The notes beneath the pieces are model-generated. The model saw only the letters and a list, made by a program, of their open reading frames with translations. It made no database searches and had not been told where the DNA came from. From Chiloscyllium plagiosum (Eukaryota), in assembly GCF_004010195.1 (NCBI RefSeq), contig NC_057744.1, positions 13,295,518-13,359,517 on the forward strand: a stretch of 64,000 nucleotides of DNA, written 5' to 3'. A program made the translations under genes and the position numbers. This document shows, in pieces, positions 7,159 to 64,000 of the stretch; within the stretch, counting starts at the first letter, position 1; each line of letters starts with the position of its first letter.

Positions 7159-7558
7159 AGTTTTGAGAAGATTTATAGCTCAGGTTGAGGTTCTGGATGT
7201 AAGCTTGCTTGCTGAGCTGGAACGTTTGTTTTCAGACATTTCTTCACCATACTAGGGCACATCATCAGTGAGCCTCTGGTGAATCCCTGGTGGTATGGCC
7301 CACTGTCCTTTTATGTGTTTAGGTTTGCTTGGGTTGGTGATGTCATTTCCCATGGCGATATCATTTGCTGTGGTAATGTCATTTCCTGTTCTTTTTCTCG
7401 GATGGTGGTAAATGGTGTCCAAGTCAATTTGGTCCAAGAATTCCGGTTGGAATGCCATGCTTCTAGGAATTCTTGTGTGACTCTCTGTTTCGCTTGTATA
7501 GGATGGATGTGTTGACCCAACTGAAGTGGTGTCCCTCCTCATCTGTATGTAAGGATGT
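7159..7558 (-). mobile_element. Penelope-like element 3' end (GIY-YIG C-terminus + terminal repeat with decayed hammerhead at 7232-7271)
   Basis: ORF 7311-7520 QAKQRVTQEFLEAWHSNRNS; same family as 36519-38167; minus strand tca-ctgatga-t...gaaat-gtc-tga. Confidence 0.85.
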
Positions 7559-7762
7559 TGTTTGGGCAATTCTAAGTTTCAATAACATGTAAGACGATAT
7601 CAGCCAAAAATGCTGAATCTATTCAATTACCAAAAAGAGAATAACATCACTGACACCATCTGAGCTGCAAACAAACTCAGAGTATTTGGGTAGACAGAAA
7701 CATCAAAGTCCTGTTCATGATTTTGTTTTAGAGAAGTGTGGCAATAGGTTAGTAATATTAGT

Positions 7763-9223
7763 TCAATTATGGCTGAGGTAGCTTACTCAGCAGATACTGC
7801 TGAAGAATCAGGAAACTCCTTGCTCTGTACAGTACTGTGTAGTATTCCCCATTGACTCATTAGAGAACTCACTATACATATTGATACCATTGGAAATTAC
7901 ATCACCACAAACTGACCATGAATTGTTGGTTCTATCCCTGAGCTTTGGCATAATTTGTACCCAAATCATTTCCCTTAATGTCTCCATTTTAAAATGACTA
8001 CTTATTAAGCAGGAGCAAGAAAACATTTGACTAACACATTGACAATCACCTCAATTAAATGAGCTGATGGAATGAATGCTTATTAAATTCAGCATCAAAA
8101 TGACAGTCCATAAAAGCAGAACTGTGTGCTTTGGAAAGATGGTGAACTTCAGACACTTCTCCTGAACAATTCTGCCCCCCACCAAGCAGTTGAAACAGTT
8201 CTTAGTAAATTATGCATGATAACACTAAATTGAATGTTTCTCGACAAAGCAAAAATTCCCACGCATTGGGTTTTTGCCCCAGCGGGGTGATAAATACATA
8301 AATGTTTCCATGCCCAAACGCTTTCATTTCCCTTGCTAAATGCTTTTTGTCAAAGGCTGTCAATGAATTCCCTGCTGCACACCAGGCCAATTTAAATTGG
8401 TACCATCTGTGGACCACTGTCTTGTCAGAGATCAAGCTTAGGCTGTCTCTTTCAACTTTATCAAAGTATGATAGCAGTAAATAAACTAAAATTGTTTCAG
8501 AAAAAGATGTGTGGACAGGGACATTTAGTGCCATTTAATTAATGCAATGTAGGAATCAAGTTTACAAAACACTTCTTACCAATATTTTCTCCAACCCACC
8601 TGAAGGCACTGACTCCACATTGGATTTGAAACATAGCTACAGGCAACCACTGCATATAATTTACCATTTAGATACAGGCCATTGAGCCCATTTGGTCACT
8701 GCTGATGCTAATTGGCCACACAGGCATCACCACTGAATTTATCTCATTTTGAGGTATCAATTTAGCCATTTATTGTTTTATCCCTCAAGAACATACCTAC
8801 TTTCTCCTTAAATGAGGTTCAGACTCATGTGTGAACCAATTCCACATTTGGATCATTCTCTCAGTTTACCTAGCAGCCATTTTACATTTACAAATTTAAA
8901 CAGTTGGTAGTTGTGAATGTTAACCGTGGTCCAATGCAATAATTAAGATGAGTGCAATGTGCACTTTACAACAGGCGTTACATGTTAGCTTTCAGAAAGA
9001 GCATCCTCAATGGAATTTTCACTTCTTATGAAAAAGTAGGTCAATTATGGCTGAGGTAGCTAACTCAGCAGACACAGTTGGAAAATCTGGAACCTCCTTG
9101 CTCTGTACGGTACAGCATTCATTCCCCATTGACTCATTAAAGAATCACTGTGCATATTGCTACTATTGGGAATTATATCACCACTAACTGTCCAAAATTG
9201 TCGGTTCTACCCCTGAGCTTTGG
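7763..9223 (+). repeat. Dispersed direct duplication of ~185 bp (7763-7948 and 9041-9223)
   Basis: Both copies run tcaattatggctgaggtagc...attccccattgactcatta...ctgagctttgg; roughly 80% identical by eye. Confidence 0.9.
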
Positions 9224-15806: not shown

Positions 15807-15836
15807 TTTTGTAAACACTGGCAGACACAGCTATGC

Positions 15837-16896
15837 TGTTAGCAAATAAACAATTAATTCCCAAGTCTTAGGGAAGTGTTAAAAATATCTGCCTGCAAAT
15901 GCTTATAGTTTAAACGAGCTACTTATTTCCCAACTAGAATAGGACTGCTCTAAATTAAAGCTAATCAACATTTTTAGCAGGATACAGAGTCCATGTTATT
16001 CACTTTGCCATTGAGATAGGCTTTGGGAAGGGGGTAACAGAAGCCATAGATTATAAAGCTATCAGAAGGATATGAAGGAACATCATAGACAGGTCAGTCT
16101 GCCAGAACTTGAGAGAGAAGGAACAGATAGAGCTGACAAGTCTCAGTGGTTCACATCACAGAATGTCAGTGGGAATTTGACAAGTCTAAATCATGATAGT
16201 TTAAAACAAGTCTAGAAGATCAAATCATGACAATTTAAAACAGGACTGGAGGATCCATCTGGACAGAGATAGTGATCTAGATTGAGATAAAGAATGCATT
16301 GTCAGGAAAACCTCCTACTGTTAAAGACCACGTGGAGTCACACATTAACTGCTGAGAAAAGGAAAAGTAGGAAGTAAACTCTTTGGAGCTTGCCATCACT
16401 TTGGATTGGTTCTAGGAGATTTACATCACAATTTAAGAGGCAGCATAAGGTATAACTGTGGAGTAGGCAAAAGTGAGGACTGCAGATGCTGGAAACCAGA
16501 GTTTAGATTAGTGTGGTGCTGGAAAAGCACAGCAGGTCAGGCAGCAACGAGGAGCAGGAAAATTGACGTTTCGGGCAAAAGCTCTTCATCAGGAATTTTT
16601 GAAGGGCCCGAAATGTCGATTTTCCTGCTCCTCAGATGCTGCCTGACCTGATGTGCTTTTCCAGCACCACTCTGACCTAAACTGTGGAGTAGATTTTTAG
16701 TTCTGTTAAAAGTATAAGTGGTTAAGTTCTGATTTGCAATTTATAAACTGTCTGCAAGAATATTTTTTATCAATGTTGCTATTAGTTTACTTGTTATAGA
16801 AGCCATTTTAAATCATGAAACCTTGTGATGGCATCCTTTCAGTTATGTAGTGAAAGTTCACATTTTAAGTCCCCAACATCTATAGTAATTGTGACA
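15837..16896. mobile_element. Possible solo LTR hosting a PLE insertion
   Basis: TGTTA...GTGACA termini and LTR-like composition; no clear TSD. Confidence 0.3.
16467..16679. mobile_element. Palindromic non-autonomous PLE derivative with 13-bp TSD
   Basis: TSD aactgtggagtag at 16454-16466 and 16680-16692; inverted arms; hammerhead-like core on the minus strand at 16561-16597. Confidence 0.9.
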
Positions 16897-17526
16897 TTTT
16901 CCAAAGGTTTATTGTTTGAAACATTCTAAAGTTAGAACTCAATTCTTTTTATAAATGCTGAACATTTTAATCAACTGTTCTTAAATACCTTTTCCTGAGG
17001 TGAAAGGTTTTACAGAATGCACCACAGAAGGTGGAAATAATGGTAGTGCACTGCACTGAGACGTAACTTTGTTTGTATCATTTTTTATCTTCATGTCAGT
17101 CAGATACCATTGTTTCTATCTTGAGCGATGAAAAATCTGCAGCTGACCTGTAAACTATTGCAATGCATGCTGCTCCATAATTATCCACACCCACACACTC
17201 ATCAAATCATGGTTAATATAATGGTAGAACTGTTGATTTGAAAATTAAAAACATATTTTTTTATGTGACTCAAAGACAAGTGAACAGATGAGAGCAGTGA
17301 CAACAGGAAAGTGGTTCCATTCAGGTATCGACCACAAAATGTGCTGATTTCACTATTTGGATGAGGATCCATTCTAAATTAACCACACCAGACTCGAAAC
17401 ATTAACTCAGTTTCTCTCTTCATCAATGCTGCCATACAGTCATACAGCACAGAAACAGACTCTTCAGTCCAACTCATCCATGCAGTTAGTAGGGGAGCAC
17501 TTTGTCACTAGAGACCATAATTCTAG

Positions 17527-17652
17527 TTCCTGATGAAGGGCTTTTGCCCAAAACATTGATTCTCCTGCTCCTCGGTTGCTGTCTGATCTGCTGTGCTCTT
17601 CCAGCACCACACTCTCGACTCTAATCTCCAGCATCTGCCGTCCTCACTTTCG
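17527..17652 (+). mobile_element. PLE terminal-repeat fragment starting at a CpG-decayed hammerhead
   Basis: ttc-ctgatga-a-gggc-tttt-gccc-aaaacattg followed by the conserved tgctgcctgacctgctgtgc-like repeat. Confidence 0.85.
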
Positions 17653-22527: not shown

Positions 22528-22841
22528 GTGGCACAGTGGCTAGCGCTGCTGCCTCACAGGACCATGAGACCTGGGTTCAATTCCCACCTCAAGCAACTGT
22601 CTGTGTGGTGTTTGCACATTCTCGCCAAGTCTGCATGGGTTTTCTCTGAGTGTTCTGGTTTCCTCCCACAATCCAAAAATGTGCAGGTTAGGTGAATTGG
22701 TCATGCTAAATTGCCCGCCCGTAGTGTCAGGTGAAGGGGTAAATGTAGGGGAATGGGTCTGGGTGGGTTGCTCTTCGGAGGGTCGGTGTGGACTTGTTGG
22801 GCCAAAGGGCCTGTTTCCACACTGTAAGTAATCTAATCTAA
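22528..22841 (+). mobile_element. HE1-type V-SINE
   Basis: tRNA-like A/B boxes (tggcacagtgg, gggttcaattccc), V-domain ...ggtttcctcccaca.tccaaa and CR1-like tail (atcta)n. Confidence 0.9.
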
Positions 22842-24059: not shown

Positions 24060-25620
24060 GAAAATAAAAAGTGCTGGAAATCACAACAGGTCAGGCAGCA
24101 ACCTTGGAGAGAGAGCAAGCTAACATTTTGAGACTAGATGAGCCTTCATCAGAGATAACGTGAAGTGTGGAAGGGGCAGCATTTGTGCAATAATGAGTTG
24201 GTGGGGGGGGGGGGAGGTAGATTGTGCAGATTAAGCATGCAGAATGTGAGAATAGCAGAACAATGGAGTGTCAAACTGCCAGACCGGGAGGAACAGAAAA
24301 TTCCCCTGGTGTGAGGGGAGGGGAGAGAGGACATGGTGACCGAGAAGAATACACAACAGTGTGATTGGATCCCCCCTTGTCCTCACTTTTCACCCCACCA
24401 ACCTCCACATTCTAAAGATCATTCTCCATCATTTCAGACAACTCCAGCAGAAGGACACCAACAAACACATCTTCAGCTCTGTCTGCCTTTTGCAGGGACC
24501 ATTCCCTTTGGAACAACTGGTCCATTCCTAGACCACCATGACAAGCCCCCCCTTCCCAGGTAACCACAGAAGGTGCAACACCTGCCCCTTCCCCTCCTCC
24601 CCACTCACCAGCCAAGGGCCTAAACAACCTTTCCAGGTGAAGCAGCAACTCTAATCTGAACTGTGGCATTTGCTGCACCCAATGTGATCTACTCTACATT
24701 GGAGAAACTAAATGTAGACTGGGTGACCATTTGCAGAATACCTCCAGCTCATATACGTACATGACCCCGACCTTCCTTATAGCTGGTCATTTTAACACAG
24801 CGTCCTGCTCACGTGCCCACTTGTCTGTCCTCAAAATGCTGCAATGCTCTGGCGAATCACAGCACAAACTGGAAGAACAATGTTTCGTCTTCAGACTAGG
24901 CATTTTTCCAAACTTCTGCACTTAATATTGAGTTCAACATCTTCAAATTGTGAACTCAGTCCCATTTCTTTTAACTTTACTTGTTGCATTCTCCGTCACT
25001 ATGTCCTCTCTCCCCCTCCCCACTCCAGTGGGACCATCTGTTCTTTCCAATCTGGCAGTTAGACACACCATTATTTTGCCATTCTCACATTCCAATCACT
25101 TAATCTGCGTTATCAGCACCCTTTCTCCCTCAACACTCCATCCCCTCACCATTGTATAAATGCTGTCCCCTCCACACTTCACATCAGCTCCGATGAAGAA
25201 TTGTCTGGACTTGAAACATTAGCTTACTCTCTCTCTTTGGATGCTGCCTGGTCCATTAACAGGCCCTTTGGCCCAACAAGTCCACACCAACCCTCCAAAG
25301 AGTATCCCACCCACAGCCATTCCCCTACGTTAACCCCTGAACTAATGTACCTAATCTGCACATCCCTGAACGCTATGAGCAATTTAGCATGGCCAATTCA
25401 CCTAACCTGCACATCTTTGGACTGTGGGAGGAAACCCGAGCACCCGGAGGAAACCCATGCACACACGGGGAGAATGTGCAAACTCCACACAGACAGTCAC
25501 CTGAGGCTGGAATCAAACCCAGGTCCCTGGCTATGTGAGGCAGCAGTTGCTAACCACTGAGCCACCGTGCCACAGTTATTTCAATATAGATTCCAGCTCC
25601 TGGATTAATTTGCTCCTAAC
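24060..25620 (+). mobile_element. PLE with inverted 5' terminal repeat (24060-24345, -), decayed GIY-YIG endonuclease and 3' repeat; nested in a short SINE and interrupted by HE1
   Basis: ICCTQCDLLYIGETKCRLGDH.AE GIY-YIG motif at ~24665-24740; decayed hammerheads at 24119-24155 (-) and 25186-25225 (+). Confidence 0.85.
25258..25572 (-). mobile_element. HE1-type V-SINE
   Basis: Reverse complement of the V-domain and tRNA head. Confidence 0.9.
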
Positions 25621-30039: not shown

Positions 30040-31686
30040 AGAAGCTGGTTATTATAGCGGTGGAGTTGGACTCCTCAGATAGAAGTATTTATTTGTTTCT
30101 TTTCTCTTTTCATGACTGTTTTTTTTCGTCTTTCTATTCATCTCTCATCCTTGAGCCTCAAGTGAAGTCATCACAGACTCCCAGCCTCAACACAAATTCC
30201 TAGCCTCAGCACGGACTCCCAGACTTAGCGAGGGCTCCTGGACTCAGTGCAGATTCCCAACCACAACATGTATTCCTGGCCTCAGCGCAAGCTCCTGGCC
30301 TTAGCGTAGACTCCTAGCCTCAATGTGGACTCCCGGACTCAGCGAGGGCTCCCAATCTCAACATGGACTCCCGGCCTCAGTGCGGGTTCCTGGCCTCAGT
30401 GCATACGCATACTACTAGCCTCAGTGCAGACTCCCAGCCTCAACATGAACTCTTGGCTTCTGTGTGGATCCCCAACCTCAATATGAACTCCCAGCTTCAA
30501 CATGAACTCCCGGCCTTGGCGTAGACTCCCGGCCTCAATACGAACTCTCGACTTCAACATGAACTCCCGGCCTCAGGAGAGACTGCCAGACTCAACACAA
30601 ATTTCCAGACTCAACACTAACTCCCAGCCTCAGTGCGGACTCACAGCCTCAAAACAAAATCCTGGATTCAACACAAACCTCCGGCCTCATCGTGGGCTAC
30701 TGGCCTCAGCCCAAGCTCCAGCCTCAAAATGAGCTCCCGGCCTCAGCGCAGACTCCCAGTGCGGGCGCTTGGCCACAACACAAACTCCCGGCCTCAGTGC
30801 CAACTCACAGCCTCAACATGAACTCTCAGCCTCAGCACGTGCTCCCAGTCTCAGTGCGGATTCCCGATCTCAGCACAGAATCCTGGCCTCAGTGCGGGCT
30901 CCAGATCTCAGCGCGAATCCCCGGGCTCAGCACGGACCCCTGGCCTCAGCACAGGCCCCCGGCCTTAGCCCAGACCCCCGGGCTCAGCACAGGCTCCAGG
31001 TCTCAGCGCGGGCTACAGATCTCAATGCGGGCTACAGGTCTCAGCGCGGCCTCCTGCCCTCAGTGCAGGCTCCTGGCCTCAACACGAACTCCCGGTCTCG
31101 ACGTTAATCCAGAATGGACTTCCGATACTCTTGGTCTCGAGATGAAGCCCAGTCTGGACTGAAGGAGAGGCCTGGCACAGTCTGGATGTTCGGTGATGGT
31201 GCAAACTGGGTTGGAAGAACTGTTATTGTGAACTTTTTATTTCTTTATTTTTCTCATTTATTCAATGAGTTTATACTTTTGTAAATAAAATGGTGTGAAG
31301 GTCTGTAATTCTGTATACATAGTTCACTCTTCAACTCATTCAGTTTGAATTGTGATGTGGACCATACTGTAAACTGTGTTGGGAAGGCAATTTCAAATTT
31401 CTTTCTCAATATAGAACATAGAACATAGAAGAATACAGCGCAGTACAGGCCCTTTGGCCCTCGATGTTGCACCGATCCAAGCCCACCTAACCTATACTAA
31501 CCCACTATCCTCCATATACCTATCTTTTTATTTCTATACTTTTCCAATTTATTTTCCAAGAATTTGTACTTAAAATTCTGTCCTAGGTACATTTGTACCT
31601 AAGATGGCACTGGAGGTGGTGACTTGTAAATGTTTCACTGTACTCATGTGAGTACATGTGACAATAGAGCAAATTCTAATTCTAAA
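30040..31686 (+). mobile_element. Probable non-autonomous retroposon with Rex1-like 3' tail containing the minisatellite
   Basis: Ends tttcactgtactc...tacatgtgacaata..aaattctaattctaa, similar to the Rex1-like tail at 57165-57220. Confidence 0.5.
30176..31104 (+). repeat. GC-rich 19-bp minisatellite, ~49 diverged units (consensus ~ACTCCCGGCCTCAGCGCGG)
   Basis: Periodicity read directly, e.g. attcctagcctcagcacgg / actcccagacttagcgagg / gctcctggactcagtgcag. Confidence 0.95.
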
Positions 31687-32030
31687 TAATGTTTCCACAC
31701 GTTTGGATGGGAACATTAGTTTAACATAATGCTCAAGGATTACAGGGAGAAGGCAGGAGAATGGGTTGAGAAACATATCAGCTATGATCGATTGATGGAA
31801 CAGGCTCAACAGGCCAAATGGTCTAATTCTGCTCTTGTATCTTACAATCATAAGTTCTCTCATATATTTACTATAGGAAGGATGTGGAGGCACTGGAACG
31901 GGTGCAGAGGAGGTTTACCAGGATGTTGCCTGGTATGGAAGAAATTTGAAATTGCCTTCCCAACACAGTTTACAGTATGGTCCACATCACAATTCAGACT
32001 GAATGAGTTGAAGAGTGAACTATGTATACA
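31312..32030. repeat. 92-bp inverted duplication (31312-31403 / 31939-32030), each copy abutting a CR1 fragment
   Basis: One mismatch; also visible as the shared peptide KKFEIAFPTQFTVWSTSQF in opposite-strand ORFs. Confidence 0.95.
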
Positions 32031-32852: not shown

Positions 32853-33062
32853 GAAAGTGAGGACTGCAGATGCTGGAGATCAGAGCTGAAAAATGTGTTG
32901 CTGGAAAAGCGCAGCAGGTCAGGCGGCATCCAAGGAGCAGGAGAATCGACGTTTCGGGCATAAGCCCTCCTTCGGGAAGAAGGGCTTATGCCCGAAACGT
33001 CGATTCTCCTGCTCCTTGGATGCTGCCTGACCTGCTGTGCTTTTCCAGCAACACATTTTTCA
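32853..33062. mobile_element. Palindromic non-autonomous PLE derivative with 15-bp TSD
   Basis: TSD gttcagctgttagga at 32838-32852 and 33063-33077; 88-bp arms (32886-32973 / 32976-33063) with 3 mismatches. Confidence 0.93.
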
Positions 33063-34192: not shown

Positions 34193-35059
34193 CCCTTCTA
34201 GTGTCAGATAGACATATAACTTTAACAGTGCTAAGTGTGACATTACCATGATCACAATTGAGAATGAGACATATTGTCATGTAAAATGTCCATATAAAGG
34301 TATCAATCAACCCCATCTCTAATAACTGCCACTGTACTTCAAAATCCATCAAGGAAATTAGTTGGTCAACCAAATGCAATAGAGTCCACAATATTATTAT
34401 GTCTGTGATAGAGTTGTAATACATTTAATTAATTTGTGAATAAATTTTCTGATAGGTATTCTTGGTAAGAACTTGGTCTCGATGTTCTTGTTACAAAAGT
34501 TAATATAATCACACCAGGAAGACATTGGTTTTCATTGTAGACCTACTTTCAGCACCAGATAATATGCAACAAAACTACAGTCCTGAAAAATTCCAACAAC
34601 ATAGTGTTTGTTCTGAATTCATGTTGACCAATAAAGAAATCCTATTTGTATATATTTTTAAAATCTGTAATCTTTCAGACATGATACAAAGTGATTCATA
34701 TGCACTAAATTATTTGGAAATATGGTCATTGTTGTTAGGAAGTTAAATGTGGAACATAATTAAAGCAAAATATTGTGATTCTGGAAATCTGAAATATTAA
34801 AAAACTGAAAATACTGGAGAAATGAAGCAGGTCTGGGACCATTGATGGCGAGAGAAACAGGATTAATATTTCAAGTCCAGTATGACTCTTCTTGCGAATG
34901 TGGAAGATAACGTGCAGATAACAAGATCTCATAAGTTGTTAAAAGATGTGCAACCAGGTTATCTTCATCATTGTTAGTGCTTGAGGGATTAATGCTGACC
35001 AGACAAGGTAACAATACCAGATAGGTAAAACCACAACTAAACAATGGGAGGTATTCAAA

Positions 35060-36518: not shown

Positions 36519-37124
36519 CGAGTTTTGAGAAAATTTGTAGCTCAGGTTGAGATTTACGTGTTTAGGCTTCCTTGTGTTGGTGAAGTCATTTCCTGTGGTG
36601 ATGTCATTTCCGGTTCTTTTTCTGAGAGCGTGGAAAATGGGTTCAAGTCGATGTGTTTGTTTCAGTTGGAATACCATGCTTCTAGGAATTTTCATGCATG
36701 TCTCTGTTTGGCTTGTCCTAGAATGGATGCGTTATCCCAGTTGAAGTGGTGTCTCCTTCTTCATCTGTATGTAAGGATACTAGTGAGAGTAGGTCATGTC
36801 TTTCTGTAGCCAGCTGATGTTCATGTATCCTGATGGCTAGTTTTCTACCTATTTGTCCAATGTAGTATTTGGTACAGTTATTGCAAGGTATTTTGTATAT
36901 GAGGTTTGTTTTGCTTGTTATCTGTATACAGCGTTTTAAATTCATTAGCTGCTGTTTTAATGTGTTGGTAGGTTTGTGGGCTACCATGATGCCAAGAGGT
37001 CTGTGTAGTCTGGCAGTCATTTCTGAGATGTCTTTGATGTAGGGGAGAGTGGCTATGGTTTCTGGATGTATTTTGTCTGCTTGTTTGAGTTTGTTGCTGA
37101 GAAATCGGCGGACTGTATTCATTG

Positions 37125-37769
37125 TATTATGGACCAGGCCAGGACATTCAAAACATTCTTAAGCAGGCAGCCCAGACCATAACTTTGCAATTTGTTTCTG
37201 TTCTTTAAGTGTACAGTGAAAATTACCCAGAGTAAGTTAGCTAAGTTGACTACCAAGGTTTAAAACAGACAAAAATGTATTCGCATAACTACACAATGAT
37301 ACACAAAGAACAGAATAAAGAACCCCTACAGAACGCAATCTATCCAAACTAGACGTAATTATGCTGTTCCGAATATACACAACAGTTGCAATAAGCAAAC
37401 CCCTAAAACACAGTAAAAATGAAACAAATGCTTACAGGTTGAAGTTCGAAGGGCAGAAGGAGAGAGGGTCTCATAGCCTGTTTCCAAACAGCTGAACTCC
37501 CTAACTACATCTGGACTGAACTGCCCAGCTAGAGAGCTGACCACTCCCCTTTCAAAATACAGGTCACTTCTAAAACATGACCACTTCGGCCTGAAGTCTC
37601 AACTGTTTATGTATAAACAAAAGGCCTTTTAAAATCCTTTTCCATCTCAGTACCAAATTAGCCACCTTGGAGCTGGGAGCTGTTTATGACCTCTCTGAGA
37701 AAAATGAAGGACACAGTATCCTTGCGAAAAGGAACAGCTTATTAAAGAAAAAGGACTAGTTTTGTGACA
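37125..37769. mobile_element. Solo LTR (645 bp) inserted in the PLE
   Basis: T(A)TTAT...GTGACA termini; 4-bp TSD attg/gttg; PLE sequence resumes in register after removal. Confidence 0.75.
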
Positions 37770-38050
37770 GTTGGGTATACCCGTTCTTTTTGAATACGCT
37801 GTATAGGTGATTTTCCTTAGCTCTTCATTGTTCCTCTGTGTTGCAGTGTATGGTGGCTTGTTGAAATAATGTTCTAATGCAGCTTCATTTGTGGGTGTTG
37901 AGATGCTTGCTTCTGTAGTTTAGTATTGGGTCCATATGTGTTGTTTTTCTGTAGATGCTGGTTTGAAGTTCTCAAAGAACATCACTGACCCAAGGAAATC
38001 TAAACACATAAACAGAAAGTGGGTCATAACACCAGCACTCCACCAAAGGC

Positions 38051-38090
38051 TCACTGATGATGTTATCTAACATGGTGACGAAACATCTGG
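38051..38090 (+). ncRNA. Near-intact minimal hammerhead ribozyme motif (PLE family 2)
   Basis: UCA-CUGAUGA-U-GUUAUC(UAACAU)GGUGAC-GAAAC-AUC-UGG; stems I and II pair with G-U wobbles; G16.2>A is consistent with CpG decay. Confidence 0.7.
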
Positions 38091-39050: not shown

Positions 39051-39388
39051 GATTTTGAGTAGATTGTACAGAAGTTCATTGCTCTTTTTTAAGCAATGCC
39101 ATGGGCTCTGCAGATGCTGGAGTTCAGAGTCGCGAGTGTGGCACTGGAAAAGCACATCAGACCAGGCAGCATCCGAGAAGCAGGTGAATCGATGTTATGG
39201 ATAAAATGACCCTCAGCAGGAATGCAACCTTCGCTTTTATTACTGAAGCAGGTAGACTAATCCTCCAGAGTTCCAAATTGAGAGTATCAGGAATTAGATC
39301 AAACTTTCTCACGACTGTTAATGAAACTATTTTCAATAATAAAATGAATTTTTTTTTCAGTTGCTATTTTTGTGGTTTTAATCTGTTA

Positions 39389-40397: not shown

Positions 40398-40930
40398 ATT
40401 TAGAGTCACAAAGTCCTAGAAATGTACAACACGTGGACAGACCCTTCATTCGTACTCATCCATGCCAACCAGATATCCTGAATTAATTTAGTCTCATTTG
40501 CCAACACTTGACCCATAACCCTCCAAACCCTTCCTATTCATTTACCCAGATGCCTTTTAAATGTTGTAATTTTACCAGCCTCCACCACTTTCTCTGGCAG
40601 CTCACTCTGGACATGTACCACCCTCTGTGTGAAAACGTTGCCCCTTAGATCTCTTTTAAATATTTCCCCCCTCACTCTAAACCTATGCCCTCTAGTTCTG
40701 GATTCCCCCACCCCAGGGAGAAGACCTTGCGTAATTATCCGATCCATGCCCCTCACAATTTTATAAACCTCTATAAGGTCGCCCCTCAGCCTCTGATGCT
40801 CCAGGGAAAACAGCACCAGCTTATTCAGCATCTCCGAGGAGAAAGTGAGGTCTGCAGATGCTGGAGATCAAAGTTGAAACTTTATTGCTGGAACAGCACA
40901 GCAGGTCAGGCAGCATCCAGGGAACAGGAG

Positions 40931-40966
40931 ATTCGACGTTTCGGGCACAGGCCCTTCTTCAGGAAT
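40931..40966 (-). ncRNA. Intact minimal type-I hammerhead ribozyme motif (PLE family 1)
   Basis: Minus strand AUUC-CUGAAGA-A-GGGC(CUGU)GCCC-GAAAC-GUC-GAAU. Confidence 0.85.
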
Positions 40967-41438
40967 GAGCAGAGAGTGTTCAGCAGGAGAAGATAAAAGG
41001 TAGGGAGGAGGGACTTGGAGGAGGGGAGTTGGAAATGTGATAGGTGGAAAGAGGTCAAGGTGAGGGTGATAGGTCGGAGTAGGACGGAGGCGGAGAGGTC
41101 AAGAAGAAGACAGCAGGTCAGGAAGGCGGTGCCGGGCGGGAAGGATCCGGCTGAGACAAGGTGGGGGGAGGGGGGATGAAAAAACTCATCACCCCAGGGG
41201 ACCTCCCATCCACCGCCTCCAACCTCATAGTCCCACAACCCCGAACCGCCCGTTTCTACCTCCTGCCCAAAATCCACAAACCTGACTGCCCCGGACGACC
41301 CATCGTCTCAGCCTGCTCCTGCCCAACCGAACTCATCTCGGCATACCTCGACACGGTCCTGTCCCCATTAGTCCAAGAACCCCCCACCTACGTCCGTGAC
41401 ACCACCCACGCCCTCCACCTCCTCCAGGATTCCCGCTT

Positions 41439-41879: not shown

Positions 41880-42046
41880 AGGTGCCGGTGTTGGACTAAG
41901 GTGGGCAAAGTTAAAAATCTGACAACACTAGGTTATAGTCCAACAGGTTTATTTGGAAGCACTAGCTTCCGGAGCACTGCTCCTTCATCAGGTAGCTGAT
42001 AAATCTGTTGAACTATAACCTAGTGTTGTCTGATTTTTAACTTTGT
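41880..42046. mobile_element. Palindromic PLE derivative (family 3) with hammerhead-like core at 41960-41994 (-)
   Basis: Inverted arms caaagttaaaaatc.gacaacactaggttatagt.caacag; minus strand UAC-CUGAUGA-A-GGAGC(AGU)GCUCC-GGAAG-CUA-GUG. Confidence 0.8.
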
Positions 42047-42984
42047 TTCTGTGTTGCCAGCCCTGAGTAACATTGTTAAATCTTGCCAAATGCTGTTGAG
42101 TCTCAATTCAAAAAGATAATCACAGAGTGAGTTGCGATGAAAATCATGGGTCCCAGGCGCATAATGGAAGCAGCAGCTCCAGGCAAAGCAGACAGCAGAG
42201 ACCGACACACTGAACACATGGCAAGTATCTCTGCTTAGTTATCATTCCCAGTGGATCCCTCACCAAATAAGAAAATGTCTCAGCATCCCATCCAGCTTTA
42301 TCCTTTATGAGGTAAAGGAACGAGAGGCGGAGAAAACTTTGAGCAAGAGCCTGCTTGCTTGCTTTCTGTAACTGAACCTAGAACATAGCATTAGAGCTGG
42401 CAGCATCTGTGAAGAGAAACGTTTTGGGTCGACTGAGCCTCAGAACCCACAGATGCTACCATACCAGCAGAGTCTCTCCAACAATTTCTGTTTTTGTTTC
42501 TGATTTACAGCAGCCGCAGTTCTTTTGGCTTTTAACATATCATTAGGACTTGACAGAAATGTGGATGTAACAGCCCACAAGCTGCATCTTCTAACAGCCA
42601 CACTGTAGGTATTTAGAACAATGAAAGGATCTTACACACATTACTGAAGCTAAGCTCCCAGCATCATAAGCCTTCACAAGCCATCAGCATTGAATAGTTC
42701 TTTGCGGAGATTAAACAAATGACTTATTTGTCTGACAGATGTTGTGCTTTGAAAAATATTTGCATGCTTCAGCAAAGCACTCAGATTTTATTGGCCAACC
42801 AGTCACCCAGCTTTTCTGCTCCTTCCCTCTTTGTCAGCTGGAACTCAGTCAGTCACATTTGCTTGTAAAGTCAGGCTCATTTGGGAATTAAAACACAACA
42901 GCGAATGCTGGAGATTGGAAACAAAACAGAAATTTCTGCAGAGACTCTGCTGATATGGTAGCATCTGTGAGAAGAAAGGACAGG

Positions 42985-44665
42985 AGTGGGAATTTGTGCT
43001 TGGAGTCCGAGGAGATAGGAGAGGTGCTAAATGAATATTTTTCATTAGTATTTACACTGGAAAGAGACAATGTTGTTGAGGAGAACACTGAGGTACAGGC
43101 TATTAGATGAGATGGGACTGAGGTTCGTAAGGAGGAGGTGTTAGCAATTCTGGAAAGTGTGAAAATAGATAAGTCCCCTGGGCCGGATGTGATTTATCCT
43201 CAGATTCTCTGGGAAGCCAGGAAGGAGATTGCAGAACATTTGGCTTTGATCTTTATGTCGTCATTGTCGACAGAAATTGTGCCAGAAGACTGGAAGATAG
43301 CAAATGTTGTCCCCTTGTTCAAGAAGGGGAGTAGAGACAACTTTGGTAATTATAGAGCAGTGAGCCTTACTTCAGTTGTGGGTAAAGTGCTGGAAAGAAT
43401 TATAAGATATAGGATTTATTATTAACTAGAAAGGAACAATTTGATTAGGGATAGTCAACACAGTTTTGTGAAGGGCAGGTCGTGCCTCGCAAAGCTTATT
43501 GAGATGGTTGAGAAGATGAATGAGGGTATAGTGGTTGATGTGGTGTACATGGATTTCAGTAAAGCGTTTGATAAGGTTCCCCATGGTAAGCTGTTGCAGT
43601 AAATATGGAGGTATGGGATTGAGGGTGATTTAGTGGTATGAATCAGAAATTGGTTAGCTGAAAGAAGACAGAGAGTGGTGGTGGCAAATGTTCATCCTGG
43701 TGTTCAGTTATTAGTGGTATACCATAAGGATCTGTTTAGGGGCCACTGCTGTTTGTCATTTTTATACATGACCTGGATGATGGCGTAGAAGGATGGGTTA
43801 GTAAATTTACAAATGACTCTAAGGTCGGTCGAGCTGTGGACAGTGCTGAAGGATATTGCTGCTTACAGAGGGACATAGATAAGCTGCAGAGTTGGGCTGA
43901 AAGGTGGCAAATGGAGTTTAATGCAGAAAAGTGTGAGGTGATTCATTTTGGAAGAAGTAACAGTAATACAGAGTACTGGGGTAATGGTAAGGTTCTTGCA
44001 GTGTGGATGAGCAGAAAGATCTCCGTGTCCATGTACATAGATCCCTGAAAGTTGCCACCCAGGTTAATAGGATTGTTAAGAAGGCATATGAACCATGGGG
44101 TTATGTTGCAGCTGTAGGAAACTATGGTGTGGCCGCACTTGGAGTATTGCGTACAGTTCTGGTTACCACATTATAGGAAGGATGTGTAAGTTTTGGAAAA
44201 GATGCAGAGGAGATTTATGAGGATATTGTCTGGTATGGAAGGAAGGTCTTCTGAGGAAAGACTGAGTGACCTGAGGCTGTTTTCGTTAGAAGGAAGAGGT
44301 TGAGAGGTGACTTAATAGAGATGTGAAAGATGATCAGAGGATTAGATAGTGTTAGCAGAGAGAGACGTTTTCCTCGGATAGTGATGGCTAGCATGAGAGG
44401 ACATAGCTTTAAATTGAGCGGTGATAGATATAGGACAGATGTCAGAGGGGTAGTTTCTTTACTCAGAGAGTAGTAATGGCGTGAAACTCCCTGCCTGCAA
44501 CTGTAGTAGACTCACCGACTTTAATGTCTTTTTAAATGGCCATTGGATAAACATATGGATGATAATGCAACAATGCAGGTTAGTTCAGCTTCAGGCTGGT
44601 TTCACAGGTCAGCACAACATTGAGGGTCAGAGAGCCTGGACTGTGCTGTAATGTTCTGTGTTCTT
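42985..44665 (+). mobile_element. CR1-type LINE, 5'-truncated ORF2 (RT) to 3' tail, frameshifted
   Basis: KSPGPDVIYPQIL...PEDWKIANVVPLFKKG..NYRAVSLTSVVGKVLE, DFSKAFDKVPH and LQRDIDKLQSWAERWQMEFNAEKC. Confidence 0.95.
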
Positions 44666-44799
44666 TGAAAGCAAGATAATATTTCGAGTCTGGCGATTCT
44701 TCATCAGAACTGTTAACAGCTCAGGAAAGGTGGTAATATATTGAAGTGACGTTTGTGGGAAGGGGTTGGTCTTGCACAAGGTGACTTACTTGCCGATTT

Positions 44800-45116
44800 A
44801 CTTCCTCCAACCTCAGTATCCAAGGCCTCAGGCACACCTTCCAGGTGAAGCAGCAGCTTACCTGCACTTCTCTCAACTCATTTATTTCATTCACTGCTCA
44901 GAATGTGGTCTCCTGTATATCGGGGGAGATGAAACACAGATTTGATGACCGCTTTGCTGAACACCTACACTCTGTCTGTAAAACATGACCCAGAGTTTCC
45001 CACTGCCTCCACTTCAACACACCACTGTGTTCCTACACCAACATTTCTGTCCCAGATCTGTTGCAGTGTTCCTTAACGCAAGTTCAAAGAACAACACTTC
45101 ATTTTCCACTTGGGGA
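44800..45116 (+). mobile_element. Old decayed PLE GIY-YIG fragment
   Basis: IHCSECGLLYIG...RFDDRFAEHL; similar to 24630-24910. Confidence 0.75.
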
Positions 45117-45135: not shown

Positions 45136-45171
45136 ATTCCTGAAGAAGGGCCTGTGCCCGAAACGTCGAAT
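45136..45171 (+). ncRNA. Intact minimal type-I hammerhead ribozyme motif (PLE family 1)
   Basis: AUUC-CUGAAGA-A-GGGC(CUGU)GCCC-GAAAC-GUC-GAAU; predicted cleavage after C45167. Confidence 0.85.
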
Positions 45172-46269
45172 CTCCTGTTCCCTGGATGCTGCCTGACCTG
45201 CTGTGCTGTTCCAGCAATAAAGTTTCAACTATTCAGCATCTCCCTATAGTTCAAATCCTCCAACCCTGGCAACATCCTTGTAAATCTTTTCTGAACCCTT
45301 TCAAGTTTTGCAACATCTTTTTGATAGGAGGGAGACCAGAATTGCTTGCAATATTCCAAAAATGTCCTTTACAGCCACATGACCTCTCCAACCCCTGTAC
45401 TCAATGCTCTGACCAATAAAAGAAAGCATACCAAACGCCTTCTTCACTATCTTATCTACCTGCGACTCCACTTTCAAGGAGCTATGAACCTGAACTCCAA
45501 GGTCTCTTTGTTCAGCAGCACTCCCCAGGACCTTACCATTCAGTATGTAAGTCCTGCTCTGATTTGCCTTTCTGAAATGCAGCACCAGACATTTACCTAA
45601 ATCAATCTCTATCTGCCACTTCTCAGCCTACTGGTCTATCTGATCATGATCCCATTGTACTCTGAGGTAACCTTATTTGCTGTCCATGACACTTCCAATT
45701 TTGGTGTCATCTGCAAACTTACTAACTATACCTCCTACTTTCACATCCAAATCAATTATATAAATGACAAAAAGCAGTGGACCCAGCACCTATCCTTGTG
45801 GCACACCACTACTGAGCTTCAACAATATTATGACTTAGGTTTTATGAAGGTGATTCTGAATATTCTTTAGAAACAAATACAGTTCAGGTATTCTTTAACA
45901 GCACGTCCAAAAATTGAAATGGCGAAACAACCAAAGTTTTATTTTTCAAGCACACCTCTAAATCATGTGGGAAACTGGGGTTCCGGCAGAACCCCAGTGT
46001 TACCTTATAGGTACTGAAGCAGTTCCAGAAAACTCACAAGGATCAGGCTGGGGTTCTCTTGTTTTCACTTCTGACACTTCAGCCAGTTCTGACCTGAAGT
46101 CCATCAAAAATCATCTCTTTAGCAATACTGTTGACAGTCACACGTTTGCTTTACCTTGGCTTTTTAGTCCTTTTTTATTGAAAAAGCAGTTTTATTCTTC
46201 CAATAGTCATGTTAGAAAGACCATTTTATACCCCTATAGGTGGTGTAAGAAAAATAATTAGCAAAGGGG

Positions 46270-48143: not shown

Positions 48144-48445
48144 GGGCTGCACGGTGGTACAGTGGTTAGCACTGCTGCCTCACAGCGCCAGAGACCCGGG
48201 TTCAATTCCCGCCTCAGGTGACTGACTGTGTGGAGTTTGCACGTTCTCCCCGTGTCTGCGTGGGTTTCCTCCGGGTGCTCCGGTTTCCTCCCACAGTCCA
48301 AAGATGTGCAGGTCAGGTGAATTGGCCATGCTAAAAATTACCCGTAGTGTTAGGTAAGGGGTAAATGTAGGGGTATGGGTGGGTTGCGGGTTGGTGTGGA
48401 CTTGTTGGGCCGAAGGGTCTGTTTCCACACTGTAATGTAATCTAA
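48144..48445 (+). mobile_element. HE1-type V-SINE (young)
   Basis: A/B boxes, CpG-rich V-domain and tail. Confidence 0.93.
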
Positions 48446-51400
48446 AAATTTTACATATATCATCTGACCCATGGTTTAGTTGACTAATCAGGCTTTTCTG
48501 CAGATGTATTAATTATATTGAAAGATGCAAGGAGAGGATTTGGAGAAAACTGCTGCACAATCAAGCAGTTAGTGCTTGATCAAAATGAAAAGGCCAATAT
48601 TTATCATCTATTAATGATAGTGTTTGGTGCACTAATGCTCTTCCTGGCACTCACATAGCCACGTGCAAATCCATGCTGCAATTTCCAAAGAAGTGCCATT
48701 TTTTTTACACTTTGTAGCATTTTGTTGAGGAAATTATTCATTTAGTGGCAGCTCCAGAGGCAATAATTTTTTTTTACAACTACACAGCAAATCCAATTCT
48801 GTCTTCCTGCAGTAGCGGAAATGAAAAAGAGTGGATTTAATTATATCTGCCCTGATAATTTGCCATAACCGTGGCAGTTTTATTAAACTGAAGACTGCAG
48901 GAAGAATATTTATCCTAAACATTCTTTGTGCTCTAGGTACCAACCACTTAGCTCACTGGTCATGTTATACGTTAGGTATTGCTTGCAGCTTTTCTCTTCT
49001 GTACACAGCACTATCAAGCATTTAGAGGATACCTAAGAAATACTAACTTTTGATCTGTTTTCTTATTAGTTAACTTTCTTTGGATAGTTGTAATGTTTTC
49101 TGGTATATTTAACATTGTTTCTTTAATTATATATTTCATTTCTTAAATGATAGTGCTTTGACAGTGCTTAAGCACTTTAGTCAATAATTAAAATCTGTTA
49201 TTGATGAATAACGTTTTTAGTTAAAAGCTTTGGAGGGAAAAATAAAGTGGTACAAGGTGAGTTTATATCTAGATAAATCAGGCTTTGAGAAAGAATGGAA
49301 GTGGAAACAAATGTGAGGGGAAAAGAAAAGAAATCTACTTAAAGAATTTATTAAATTTATATAGTGTCTTCTACAGCTTCACATGCTACAAAGTGCTTTG
49401 TAGCCAGTTTAAGTAAATTCAGTGTTGCTGAAAAGATAGGCAGCTTTCCAAAGCTTTCTGCATGTACTCATCAGGACAAACACAAAAATGCCATTTTGCA
49501 AATGGACACGACAATTTATATTACAGAATAAAAGGTGCTAATTGGTTGCCAAGTAAACTCTAATTGACTGAGATGTTGCCATGGAGAAAGCAATGGAGAA
49601 CTATTGACTATCCAAACTCCTGGATAATTCAGTATTGTGTAAGGGCTTGAACATATTCCTTTTCTTTGTAGAGAACAGATCTTTGAACCTGAATATATGT
49701 TACTTCTATGACTCGACAATGATTCCAGCTTGTATAAATGAGCCATGTGTCTGACCAATTATCTTAAATTCTCATTAGTACAACTACTAGTACACTTTCT
49801 AACCAATCAGGACCTTTTATATCTCTCATATAAATGCAGTTGTTTGAAATTTGGCATTCTTGCACTGATGCTGAGTAATGTAAAACAATATCACTCGTTT
49901 TTTTGCAATATTTAAGTTATATAGTTCAAAGTGGTTGTTTTTAAATTGTAGTCACCACTGTAATGTCCTTTTCACACTGTAACAGAAGGTGATGCTAAAA
50001 TATATACTTATTCTGGGAAAAGGAATCATCTAGCACATTAAAAATTGAATCAGTTCAATGGAAAGATAAATATCCTTGGTTGCTGGGCTGGAAGATTATT
50101 TTTCTGTAATTACGCAACCATCCAAGAAACTGTTTTGATCACACCACTGACTCAAATCGAAGCTTTACATGAGAGTAATGTTTGTATTAAAGTTGACTAA
50201 CAACAAATCATTCATGGAATTCAATCAACACAACAGATATTCTTTTCTATCTCTGTGAGAACTCTTTATGGTCATGCTGCCTTAAATAAAACAGGCTTCC
50301 TTAGAGAAAACTATTTAATGTTAATTTGTCCTTCAAATCCATGGTATCTTTCTTACTAATTCTACACTGATTGAATATATCAGTTTTCTTATGCTTATTT
50401 TTATTTTTGAACTTTTATTCAATGTATTTGAGTTAACCTGAAGATAAACTGGTTAGAGTTTTCAGAATCTTAATGATCATGAGCGGGAAAGTTGAGCATT
50501 ATTGTATTATGCGCTTCCTCCATGGTCAATTTTAAATCTCAGAAACAAGTCAGTTCACTTAGTGATTGAAGATAGCTCAAATGCAGAAGTAAGAGTAACA
50601 TGTCGTCCTTTGATTAGGTACCATTTTTCTGAGCAATGCACTGGTACCATTGTTTATTTTGCACCTGATTTTCTTCACCATCTTGATTTTGCAATTGAAA
50701 TTTTACCCAGCACATCCCTGGAACCCTCTGAAAGGAATGAAAGTCATTAAGTGTGGGAATTTCCCCAGGCAATGCTGATAGATTTCCTGGGTGATAAAAT
50801 ACAGCACTTGCAATGAGGTAGGATCAGAAATTTACCCTAATTTGTCACGAATATGTACCATAAGGTAACGTGAATATGAAGAGGGAATAAAATATTAAAC
50901 ATTGATGGAAATAGTTTCAACTTTAGCATAAGAATTGATAATAGAAACGAGTTGTTTTGTAGTGACAGTTTTTTTTTAAATGTAGTTAGAGGTGTGAGAG
51001 CATATTATTTGTGAGTTTGCTCAGAATTGTGGACAGTAGTCTTTTATTGATTACGAAAGTTTGGAATTAAATCCTAACTAGCATTATGGAAGTAACGGAA
51101 ATAATGTAGGTAATGTTTTTCCTTTCCCCTCCTTAAGGGGTGATCATACCTTGGGACCACTCCAGCAAGTGCCAATCTCCTTCCAGAAGCTTGTCTATGA
51201 CCCTGCTCAGTGCATATTCTTCCCTCTTGGCTTCACGACAATTCTGATATTGTCCACAGCCATATTCTGGATGGACATTGAACACAAAACCATCTACAAT
51301 GAGAAACTCAGTAGTTGACCAGCATTTTCACGGTGGTTTGTTTACTCTCAGGGTGGTGGCAGGATAGTCACATCATACATAAACTACATAACCACATGTT

Positions 51401-52203: not shown

Positions 52204-52507
52204 GGTGGCCCAGTGGTTAGCACAGCTGCCTCACAGCGCCGGAGACCCGGGTTCAATTCCCGCCATAGGTGACTGACTGTGTGGAGTTTGCACGTTCTCC
52301 CCGTGTCTGCGTGGGTTTCCTCTGGGTACTCCGGTTTCCTCCCACAGTCCAAAGATGTGCAAGTCAGGTGAATTGGCCATGCTAAATTGCCCGTAGTGTT
52401 AGGTAAGGGGTAAATGTAGGGGTATGGGTGGGTTGCGCTTCGGCGGGGCGGTGTGGACTTGTTGGGCCGAAGGGCCTGTTTCCACACTGTAAGTAATCTA
52501 AATCTAA
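52204..52507 (+). mobile_element. HE1-type V-SINE (young)
   Basis: A/B boxes, V-domain and tail. Confidence 0.93.
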
Positions 52508-58879: not shown

Positions 58880-59110
58880 TCAGCTGACTGTTTACACATT
58901 CTCCTCATGGTTCTGTGGGTTTCCTCTAGATGCTCCAGTTTCCTCCCACAGTCCAAAGATGTGCAGTTTAGATGTATTGGCCGTGGGAATTGCACGGTTA
59001 AAGCGATAGGGTATTGGGTTGGACTTTGGTGGGATGCTCTTCAGAGCGTAAGTGTGGACTCAATGGCTTGCTTCCATACTGTAGGGGTTCTATGATTCCG
59101 TGATTCTATA
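58880..59110 (+). mobile_element. Decayed HE1-type V-SINE
   Basis: V-domain tttcctcccacagtccaaagatgtgcag. Confidence 0.75.
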
Positions 59111-60601: not shown

Positions 60602-60856
60602 ATATAAAAGAGACTAAGGGACAACCTTTTCACACGGAGGGTGGTACGTTTGTGGAATGAGCTGCCAGAGGAAGTGGTGGAGGCTAGTTCAATTGCAACT
60701 TTTAAAAGGCATCTGGATGGGTACATGAATGGGAAGGGTTTGTAGGGATATGGGCCAAGTGCTGGCAAATGGGACTAGATTGGGTTGAGATATCTGTTCA
60801 GCATGGACAAGTTGGACCGAAGGGTCTGTTTCCATGCTGTACATCTCTATGACTGA
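60602..60856 (+). mobile_element. CR1-type LINE 3' end
   Basis: Similar to 39950-40180. Confidence 0.88.
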
Positions 60857-60949
60857 CTCCCTGCCTTGATTCTTTCAAACCATTACCAATGGTTTCAGTA
60901 GGTTTTGTCATCTCTGTGGCAACTGCACAGCTCAAGTACAGAGAAACTG

Positions 60950-62190
60950 AGAATGAAAAAATGTTTCAGCAAATCCAGGATGAGTGGATTAAGTTCCACA
61001 TGAGAACTTTGCAGCAGAATGTCCCTTCAGGATGAGAAGGTAGTGCAGGAGGGTCAGAATCTATCATCTGCAATGCAATTTCCTCCAGACGAGCAAAGTG
61101 CAGTTTCATAACCAGAATGAGGATGGTTCAGAACACCAGTACATACCTATGTCACTTCCTGAAGTGGAATCCAAAACTTGGAACTGTGGGGTGTTCATTC
61201 TATCCCAGCTGCCAATAAGCTGACAGCTGTGCTACATTATTATGCAAATTGATGCTTCTAAATATCCACTGAAGTCCTGTATGGGATCTTCCAATCCACA
61301 ACACATAAACGTATCAATGCTGTTGTCGATGCAATTTTTGCCAGATCACACTATGTCAGTGCTCCAGCCAGGGCAATAGGCTTTGATAACACTGTTGCCT
61401 TTCCCAAGTGCAAGTGCTATAGACTGCACAGATGTCATGTTAAGAGCCAGTACTGGAGTTCTTCAATTGAAAAGCGTTCCCTTCAGTCAATGTACAAGTC
61501 TGAATTCTGGAGAACAGTCATATCAGACTCAAAACATTAACTCTGTTCCTCTCTCGACAGATGTTGCCTGACCTACTGAGATACTTCAGCATTTTCCAAG
61601 CTTGTTTCAGATTTCCAGAACCTGCAGTGCTTTGCTTTTAAATGAACCTTCAGGTCTTATGTAATCATTGGCATCACATCATAGAGATCTGCACAAAATA
61701 CATTGGAAGCTGCCATGATGCATAAATCCTTGATAACTGTCATGTTCCTGCAGCATTTCAATGACCTGATATTTTATAAGGATGAAGCCTGAGAGCAAAA
61801 AGCTGGCTACCCTCTGTAACCATGGCTAATGGTTCCATTATGCACCCCCCCCCACCTCCTTTTCGATCAAACATAGACATAATGCAGGCTATTCTTCCGC
61901 TAGGGCTACCTGATGATGAAGTTGCAAAGTTTGAATTGGTTGAATAGTGGGGGAAGAGGGAGCTTGAATGTGTGCTCCAGTCCAAGAGTGTTGTGCAATC
62001 CTTCCTAACTCTGTTCTGCTCAACTGGAACCAGCAGAGTGTGGGCATGTGGTTGACATTGAAGAGCTAGAAGATTGATAGCAGTCTTCTGAGGAGGAAAT
62101 GAGGACATTGAGCGGAAGTTCAGTGTGAAAGAGCACTGCAGCATCAGGCACAATGGTCAGACAGGACTTAATTGACATTTACTTCCAACA
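60950..62190 (+). pseudogene. Decayed PIF/Harbinger (HARBI1-like) transposase, interrupted by a PLE fragment
   Basis: KLTAVLHYYA, AIDCTDV (~61416), NLQVLCNH, GSCHDA (~61705) and GYPL*PWLMVP (~61805); stops present. Confidence 0.85.
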
Positions 62191-62727
62191 GTCCTGCATT
62201 GTATGGAGTGATCATTCACTTAATGAAAATTAGTTGTTGCATGAAGCCAAGCAGTCCCAGAAGCAAATGCATTTTTTTTTGTTTGTTCTTTCTTCACCAT
62301 GCTGTCTTTTAATTAAGGTTAATGTTCCCAACTGTGGGAAGGCTTTCCAACATGTGATGCTGCCACATTGAAAAATGACAACACATTGCTCAACTCTGGG
62401 CATGAGGAAAATAATGGCACTCCTTCAGACATGGCTATAACATGGTATTGCAATGTGGATGAGTAGCCCATGTCCCTTCATTCTTGTAACTGCAATTATA
62501 ATACCAGTTGATTAGACATGTGTTGATGTAAATGGTAATCTTTTTACAGATGAGAGATTCAATTTCTCATGAAGTATCATTAGTGTGACCTCAAAAACTC
62601 TTCGTTTTTGGTTACAACGGTGCATTGCAAAGGACTGTTGGTGGCTGGCAACGTTTGACCTGGTACACAGCTAGGATTTAAATATGGTGCCATTGGCAGA
62701 AATCCAGAATTTCCCAGTAATTGCTAG

Positions 62728-64000
62728 TGTAATGATACTTTGTCTATAAGAGGTTATTTGGTCCTGGATTTTTTGAAGCAAGGTTTTAAGTCAACGATGA
62801 TAAACAGTCCATCAGAGCCACTAGAGTAAACAACTTGTGAGGTCTTGGGACTTTTTAAAAAATTGGAACAATAGAAGCAGCCTGAATGAGTGGGGTCAAG
62901 ATAGTACAGGAGCTAAACTTTTACTTTCAGCTTTTAAAACAGTTGCTTTTGGGGTCTTTAATAAGTAGAAGTTATTTTGTACCTTCTCTCGGTTACAGCC
63001 AGAAACTGGGGTTTCTCTTCCTGCTGCTGGACTTACATTTAAAACAAACCATTTTCGGAATTTGGAAAAAAGTGAGGACTACAGATGCTGGAGATTAGAG
63101 TCAAGAATGTGGTGCTGGAAAAGCACAGCAGGTCAGGCAGCATTCAAAGAGCAGGAAAATCTATGTTTCAGCATAGCCCTTCATCAGGAATGAGGCTTGT
63201 GAACCAAGGAGGTGGAGAGATAAATAGGAGGGGGTGGGACGGTAGATAGGTAGACAGAGGTGGCAGTAATGATGATAGATCAGAGAGGAGGGTGGAGCAG
63301 ATAGATGGGAAGGAAGATGGACATGGAGGACAGGTCATGAAGGTGGTGCTGAGTTGGAAGGTTAGAACTGGCATAAGGTGGAAGGAGGGGAAATGACGAA
63401 ACTGGTGAAATCCACATTGATCCCGTGTGGTTGGAAACCCAAGGTGGAAGAGGAGACGTTCTTCCTCCAGGCATCAGGTGGTTTGGGTTTGACGATGGAG
63501 GACATCCAGAACCTGCATGTCCATGGTGGAGGGGGAGTTAATGTGTTCAGCCACAGGGTGATGGGGTTGGGGTTGGTGCAGGTGTCCTGGAGATGTTCTC
63601 TGAAGTGTTCGATGGGGTTGGGGTTGGTGCAGGTGTCCTGGAGATGTTCTCTGAAGTGTTCTGCAAGTAGGCATCCTGTCTCCTCCAATGTCGAGGAGAC
63701 CGCATCGGATACAGTAAATGACATGGGTGGAAATGCAGGTAAAATTCTAATGGATGTGGAAGGCTCCACTGGGGCCTTTGACAGAGGTGAGAGGGGAGGT
63801 GTGGGCACAGGTTTTGCAATTCCTGTGGTGGCAAGGGAAAGTGTCAGGAGGGAAGTGTGGGTTGGTGTGGCCGCGTGGACCTGACAAGAGAGTTGCGGAG
63901 GGAATGGTATTTAATGGAACACAGATAGGGTAGGGAGGGAAATTTTCTGAATTTGCCTTTTGACAAGGGTGTGTTTATGGGATGTTCCTATATCAGTACA
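62728..64000. mobile_element. Probable LTR, truncated by the window edge and split by a PLE
   Basis: TGTAA start; LTR-like sequence resumes after the PLE TSD. Confidence 0.4.
63065..63941 (-). mobile_element. PLE 3' part (GIY-YIG + terminal repeat) with 14-bp TSD and internal 51-bp tandem duplication
   Basis: TSD attttc(g/t)gaatttg at 63051-63064 and 63942-63955; ETGCLLAEHFREHL; duplication at 63560-63610 / 63611-63661; decayed hammerhead ~63159-63191. Confidence 0.9.

Follow-up and report, generated by a model that had tools for sequence, protein, structure and literature searches.

A stretch of 64,000 nucleotides from the cartilaginous fish Chiloscyllium plagiosum (assembly GCF_004010195.1, contig NC_057744.1, positions 13,295,518 to 13,359,517; hereafter the window) contains short motifs that are likely to be minimal type-I hammerhead ribozymes, situated in terminal repeats of Penelope-like elements (PLEs) from four lineages, and whose active copies probably pair through a four-nucleotide palindrome, thereby completing helix III, and cut after position 17. 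An initial annotation had pointed to 13 hammerhead places, and the layout could indeed be recognised at all of them: a stem I strand, CUGANGA, one extra letter, the stem II hairpin, GAA, the 4-nt palindrome, N17, and the other stem I strand. Two copies (40931 and 45136) are flawless in core, pairs, and palindrome, and 11 are damaged: five (7232, 16561, 38051, 44674, and 63159) have kept the core letters and lost pairs or palindrome, and six (17527, 24119, 25186, 32944, 61503, and 41960) carry changes in the core. A scan of the window against Rfam (E up to 1) returned no hammerhead family and four weak microRNA matches only.

The motif layout is not due to chance, and this conclusion is statistically solid. 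An unselected genome sample, drawn as 80 segments of 10 kb at round coordinates of large contigs (758,068 called bases), was searched for the strict core together with a stem II of four pairs or more, with ten dinucleotide shuffles as the control. Of the 69 matches, 60 had the +1 spacing, compared with 2.0 in the shuffles, three lacked the extra letter (2.1 in the shuffles), and six had two or three extra letters; the shuffles gave about two matches for each spacing class. The full descriptor, combining strict core, stem II, palindrome, and helix I, found 45 matches, all 45 with the +1 letter, against 0.2 in five shuffles, and the four families account for 44 of them. A wider set consisted of 1.67 Mb together with the window, most of it beyond the 758 kb being drawn with family queries and hence biased. 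In this partly family-drawn set the +1 letter was present in 265 of 267 family matches, and no fifth family or family lacking the +1 letter was found in the 1.67 Mb of mostly biased DNA, where one of 268 matches fell outside the four families. Profile searches of the 758 kb identified 170 core-spanning copies (107, 15, 18, and 30 for families 1 to 4), and the density of descriptor matches was about 58 per Mb. Scaled to 3.56 Gb, these counts correspond to about 200,000 descriptor-positive and about 800,000 recognisable copies, which are orders of magnitude because the sample, though unselected, was not random.

The majority letters of copies sampled across the genome confirmed the layouts proposed for all four families (pair tables from 102, 15, 17, and 27 sampled copies for families 1 to 4). 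The core CUGANGA ... GAAA ... UH constitutes the majority letters in every family, with all core letters intact in 58/102, 9/15, 6/17, and 7/27 copies, respectively. The pattern of family 4, which had been reconstructed from decayed copies, holds across the genome, and intact examples were found outside the window. The extra letter is A in 94 of 102 family 1 copies, U in 13 of 15 family 2 copies, and A in 15 of 17 and 23 of 27 copies of families 3 and 4; the column is built into the profile, and the unbiased count of the +1 letter is that of the descriptor search. The palindrome of families 1, 2, and 4 is ACGU or a form derived from it by CpG decay, and that of family 3 is AGCU in 11 of 17 copies. 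The pair tables, together with the 45 of 45 descriptor matches, bear out that core, +1 letter, and palindrome are common to the four families.

The stems differ between the families by compensatory changes. In families 1 to 4, respectively, the first pair of helix I is C-G, A-U, C-G, and U-A, the second is U-A, C-G, A-U, and C-G or U-A, and the fourth pair of helix II is C-G, A-U, G-C, and U-A; the inner pair of the palindrome is C-G in families 1, 2, and 4, and G-C in family 3. The stems had been described as fully covarying and entirely different in sequence. The compensatory differences between families stand, but the description was too sweeping: the first pair of helix II (G10.1-C11.1) is most commonly G-C in all four families, and the third pair of helix I, which is short (3-4 positions) as in the type I topology, is mostly unpaired in family 1 and paired in 9 of 15 family 2 copies, being mostly mismatched in one subfamily of the latter. 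All four positions of helix I are paired in a young family 1 subfamily that has many identical copies, in contrast to the U-U or U-C mismatch of most family 1 copies (45136 versus L173:5945).

The families are associated with coding frames of PLEs, in agreement with the initial reading of the motifs as PLE hammerheads. All four families carry the motif on the coding strand, just downstream of a frame with reverse transcriptase (RT) and GIY-YIG endonuclease domains, and at one family 1 locus (L262) it flanks both ends of a 615-codon frame. Pfam scores of these frames are mostly under the curated cut-offs. Family 3 frames at several of 30 loci are 26–41% identical to pieces of family 1, and family 4 frames show 33–61% identity over short pieces, both families being matched by tblastn only. 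The RTs of families 1 and 2 share 26% identity over 279 residues. Because a CX2-5CxxC linker precedes the endonuclease in families 1, 3, and 4 and is absent in family 2, the former look Neptune- or Nematis-type and the latter Penelope/Poseidon-type, labels that follow the linker motif alone and do not separate Neptune from Nematis. The frame of family 2 stops inside the ribozyme; some copies use the UGA of the core for this and others a UAG in loop II (L275:4304, L278:4490, L259, and L276; 7252-7271 in the window). Young family 1 copies (L001-L030) fall into two end classes, ending at the repeat end or about 35 bases beyond it in a tail, as described for PLEs.

The four families had been called unrelated-looking, a view that does not hold for two of them. 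The profiles of families 1 and 4 recognise each other's ends (14/14 and 44/48 seeds, E<1e-3), and the other ten cross-comparisons gave no seed at E<1e-3 except for 1/48. By these profile matches families 1 and 4 are homologous, and therefore at most three comparisons between families are independent. Families 1, 2, and 3 showed no mutual DNA similarity beyond the core in the profile cross-comparison.

The palindrome has no loop, and its four letters cannot therefore close helix III within one molecule. Two copies would pair through the palindrome, thereby completing helix III, and the RNA would be cut after position 17, probably slowly and with the help of the element's protein, which might free the element RNA from longer transcripts. 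We infer dimer formation, cleavage, protein help, and the RNA-freeing role from published work on other animals. The Schistosoma motif did not cleave as a monomer and cleaved at a low level as a dimer (PMC4209133); a review (PMC6765202) credits dimer cleavage to Lunse et al. The motif of the anole Poseidon element reportedly (PMC11167929) cleaves only with protein, in a core-dependent manner and with rescue by C3G/G8C. Selection on a few master elements would hold the stems in register, and the dispersed copies would be dead stubs, decaying mostly at CpG, most of which were probably copied from uncut RNA because the sequence upstream of the cut site is kept. Families 1 and 2 retain the same core despite the low identity of their RTs. 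The young identical copies of family 1 are suited to a cleavage assay.

Several observations weigh against cleavage as the function of the motifs. The third pair of helix I in family 1 is formed in 17 of 88 copies, with U-U in 55 and U-C in 13, and covariation within family 4 was not significant at the two candidate pairs (P 0.13 and 0.21). Folding of five natural copies gave a firm helix II, with stem I weak or lost in four of the five when flanks were included, and the modelled half-dimer was the minimum-energy pairing in none of the five under a nearest-neighbour model that has no term for the catalytic core. No pile-up of copy 5' ends at the cut site was seen: 7/305, 0/87, 1/85, and 0/85 ends in families 1 to 4 lie within one base of it, given fuzzy profile boundaries, and 205 of the 305 family 1 matches include the whole core. 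In the anole (PMC11167929), core mutants left insertion in vitro unaffected, and none of the RNA reads had an end at the cut site. The absence of a pile-up, the retention of the whole core, the weak stem I of the commonest family 1 forms, and the normal insertion of the anole mutants might also suit a fold whose main use is structural signalling, for instance by binding the element protein or by marking the vicinity of the RNA start, with cutting incidental or rare in the cell; non-cleavage functions were also left open in PMC4209133. We consider this explanation rather unlikely, since it is precisely the catalytic letters that the lineages have in common, both partners of the palindrome pair change together, and N17 avoids G (2/102, 0/15, 0/17, and 0/27 in families 1 to 4), and since the anole motif does cleave and is rescued by the C3G/G8C exchange.

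The shared layout might also be an inherited vestige, or a pattern drawn by eye from decayed repeats, without any selection. The damage in 11 of the 13 cited copies, the modest fractions of sampled copies with an intact core, and the relatedness of families 1 and 4 would all fit such a view. It is nevertheless highly improbable, as it is already contradicted by the family-level pair tables; the shuffle controls do not produce the layout at comparable frequency, the majority letters restore the core in all four families, and families 1, 2, and 3, dissimilar beyond the core, yet keep stems of different sequence paired. We favour hammerheads that would act as dimers in active elements. With about 200,000 core-positive copies, those in host transcripts might even pair and cut in trans, helix I acting as a family address because in a dimer it joins the 5' strand of one molecule to the 3' strand of the other. 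The majority pairs, read by hand, make helix I nearly orthogonal among the four families, the exception being a variant of family 4 that is able to pair with family 1. Such cutting in trans seems to us highly improbable; if real, it would turn this genome into a natural setting for studying endogenous ribozymes that act in trans.

Within the window the copies are dispersed or inverted, and none were found head to tail. Family 2 is represented by two motifs. The one at 7232..7271 (minus strand) has an intact core, three of six stem II pairs, and a decayed palindrome, and a decayed C-terminal part of the family 2 GIY-YIG frame, matched by tblastn, continues into it (7258..7555, minus). The other at 38051..38090 (plus) has an intact core, complete stems, and a palindrome decayed at CpG, and is inverted relative to the adjoining broken RT and GIY-YIG frame at 36552..37972 (minus). 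Among the damaged family 1 motifs, that at 16561..16596 (minus) has an intact core, three of four stem II pairs, and two of four stem I pairs, with a partial inverted partner at 16601-16673 (plus). That at 17526..17561 (plus) carries G12A, and that at 63158..63191 (minus) has a shortened stem II and lies downstream of a broken family 1 linker and GIY-YIG fragment (63632..63942, minus). At 32944..33005 a palindromic family 1 stub holds two inverted motifs with two core changes in each arm. The family 4 motif at 61503..61542 (plus) carries A6G and G12A. Two decayed copies were absent from the initial annotation: one of family 4 without the start of the core (34804..34893, minus) and one of family 1 (39122..39238, minus).

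The listed copies had been treated as separate insertions, which proved incorrect for several of them. The two flawless family 1 motifs of the young subfamily, at 40931..40966 (minus) and 45136..45171 (plus), lie in the left and right inverted arms of a single insertion, whose arms are 100% complementary and which is bounded by a 13-bp target duplication (40823..40835 and 45231..45243, both plus). The insertion sits within what is, judging from an RT match, probably a CR1-like long interspersed nuclear element (LINE), and includes a family 1 RT fragment that ends at an assembly gap (41176..41436, plus). The family 4 motifs at 24118..24156 (minus, G12A) and 25186..25224 (plus, U4C) form the left and right inverted arms around a decayed linker and GIY-YIG endonuclease fragment of a family 4 element (24358..24739, plus). 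They are probably arms of one insertion as well, and no target duplication was found for this pair.

Two further copies, the only family 3 motif of the window (41960..41994, minus, A13G) and a family 4 motif with an intact core and incomplete stems (44674..44711, minus), lie within a repeated block at 41880..45116, a probable assembly duplication that was very probably pasted here by a gap-filling error. The source is probably a locus on contig C17 (L212; G000:C17 about 8269900-8273200), which continues naturally beyond the block, lacks the tail that many other copies carry, and differs from the block of the window by four substitutions and one indel. The block occurs at 20 or more places of the assembly beside gaps in young family 1 insertions (L201-L220), with partial versions elsewhere. 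Over 1,500 bases, 21 of the 22 best-matching loci, the window included, carry the same sequence, and 19 of 20 loci compared in full match the window without a single difference from 41880 to 45108. These copies diverge only where the block joins the family 1 repeat resident at each locus, and 13 of 20 border an N gap, always at the same base. Contig depth over the unique parts of the block, compared with its flanks, was 4.6-5.9 versus 7.3-7.4, 10-14 versus 16-19, 6-23 versus 9-11, and about 12 versus about 7 in four public DNA runs, which is far from 20-fold, with the provisos that contig depth does not measure copy number and that the runs may stem from other individuals. The L212 alleles are present in three of the four runs, all three from one organism (A).

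The partial copies, sharing a common 3' end, had suggested a true transduction of the block by family 1. We give this less weight, since over 3.2 kb no difference separates 19 of 20 copies, which vary only at the join, 13 of 20 border a gap, many have a tail that is missing from the probable source, the depth is near single-copy, and the L212 alleles occur in three runs. The probable artefact can pass for a transduction family of recent origin and can raise copy counts in this assembly. The family 3 pattern is nevertheless real elsewhere in the genome, even though 41960 lies within the pasted block.

Other repeats in the window include short palindromic stubs of two inverted repeat ends at 16533-16673, 32883-33066, and 41906-42045, two of which match Rfam microRNA models weakly because they are hairpins. 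A tandem array with a 19-bp period spans 30147-31104. Abundant short repeat copies, some 95% alike, are found at 22528-22841, 25369-25547, 48153-48449, 52204-52506, and 58890-59092, and presumably represent a short interspersed nuclear element. Inverted repeats at 6595-7061 and 31312-32030 have 97-99% complementary arms of 171 and 92 bases, spaced by 125 and 535 bases, respectively.

How do these motifs compare with known systems? The minimal hammerhead consensus of metazoan PLEs comprises a short helix I, CUGANGAH, G10.1-C11.1, helix II, GAAA, a palindrome, U, and H (Cervera and De la Pena 2014, PMC4209133). That paper also lists a nucleotide inserted between positions 9 and 10.1, places the palindrome at 15.2-16.2, and describes numerous covarying consensus families in single genomes, with six in coelacanth and eight in Xenopus. 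The core, the +1 letter, G10.1-C11.1, the palindromic helix III, the short helix I, and the location in the pseudo-long terminal repeat (pLTR) of an RT/GIY-YIG element are all found here. By our own count the extra letter is printed in 54 of the 56 published motifs, and the A9+1 insertion is part of the published CUGANGAH consensus. The +1 core had been suggested to be a lineage-wide design; it is indeed general, occurring in all four families, but it is not specific to this lineage, and the +1 design is superfamily-wide in PLEs. Every architectural point is already in the 2014 description, and only the density stands out: about 200,000 extrapolated copies here compared with about 9,000 in Xenopus and about 4,000 in coelacanth, where the descriptors differ and only the order of magnitude can be compared. 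The commonest family 1 forms, with their U-U mismatch in helix I, are unlike the motifs of PMC4209133.

A hammerhead in the pLTR of a vertebrate PLE is likewise known from PAc, a Poseidon element of the anole (Frangieh et al. 2024, PMC11167929). In PAc, uncut RNA is reported to be the main insertion template, a tail marks the insertion end, and the frame begins at stem II; family 1 ends with or without a tail and does not start at the cut site, and in family 2 it is the stop of the frame that lies inside the motif. The work of Craig et al. (10.1101/2021.04.23.441226) describes for the Neptune and Penelope/Poseidon clades an RT followed by GIY-YIG, pLTRs, inverted truncated copies, and a tail, as observed here, with the CX2-5CxxC linker in Neptune and Nematis, as in families 1, 3, and 4, and none in Penelope/Poseidon, as in family 2. 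The plus-strand hammerhead of chrysanthemum chlorotic mottle viroid has an extra A between A9 and G10.1, the same insertion point. According to PMC3705267, a viroid was the first system in which the extra letter was investigated: A is tolerated there, U makes cleavage 3-4-fold faster, and C and G are harmful; the extra letters of the four families are A, U, A, and A. The viroid ribozyme differs in being a complete hammerhead that works as a monomer, and the extra letter is exceptional in it. Non-LTR retrozymes are non-coding tandem units with a canonical type-I hammerhead, whereas here a minimal motif is tied to coding frames, with no tandem copies within the window. One cartilaginous fish was scanned with canonical and minimal models in a preprint (10.64898/2026.07.22.740005), which reports retrozymes and co-occurring PLEs. 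Our literature search, which covered sources other than subscription papers, found no shark-specific description, and the preprint supplements may list cartilaginous-fish motifs. The 56 motifs of PMC4209133 include no cartilaginous fish, and the four families from Chiloscyllium plagiosum extend the list of minimal PLE hammerheads to a host group outside that paper.

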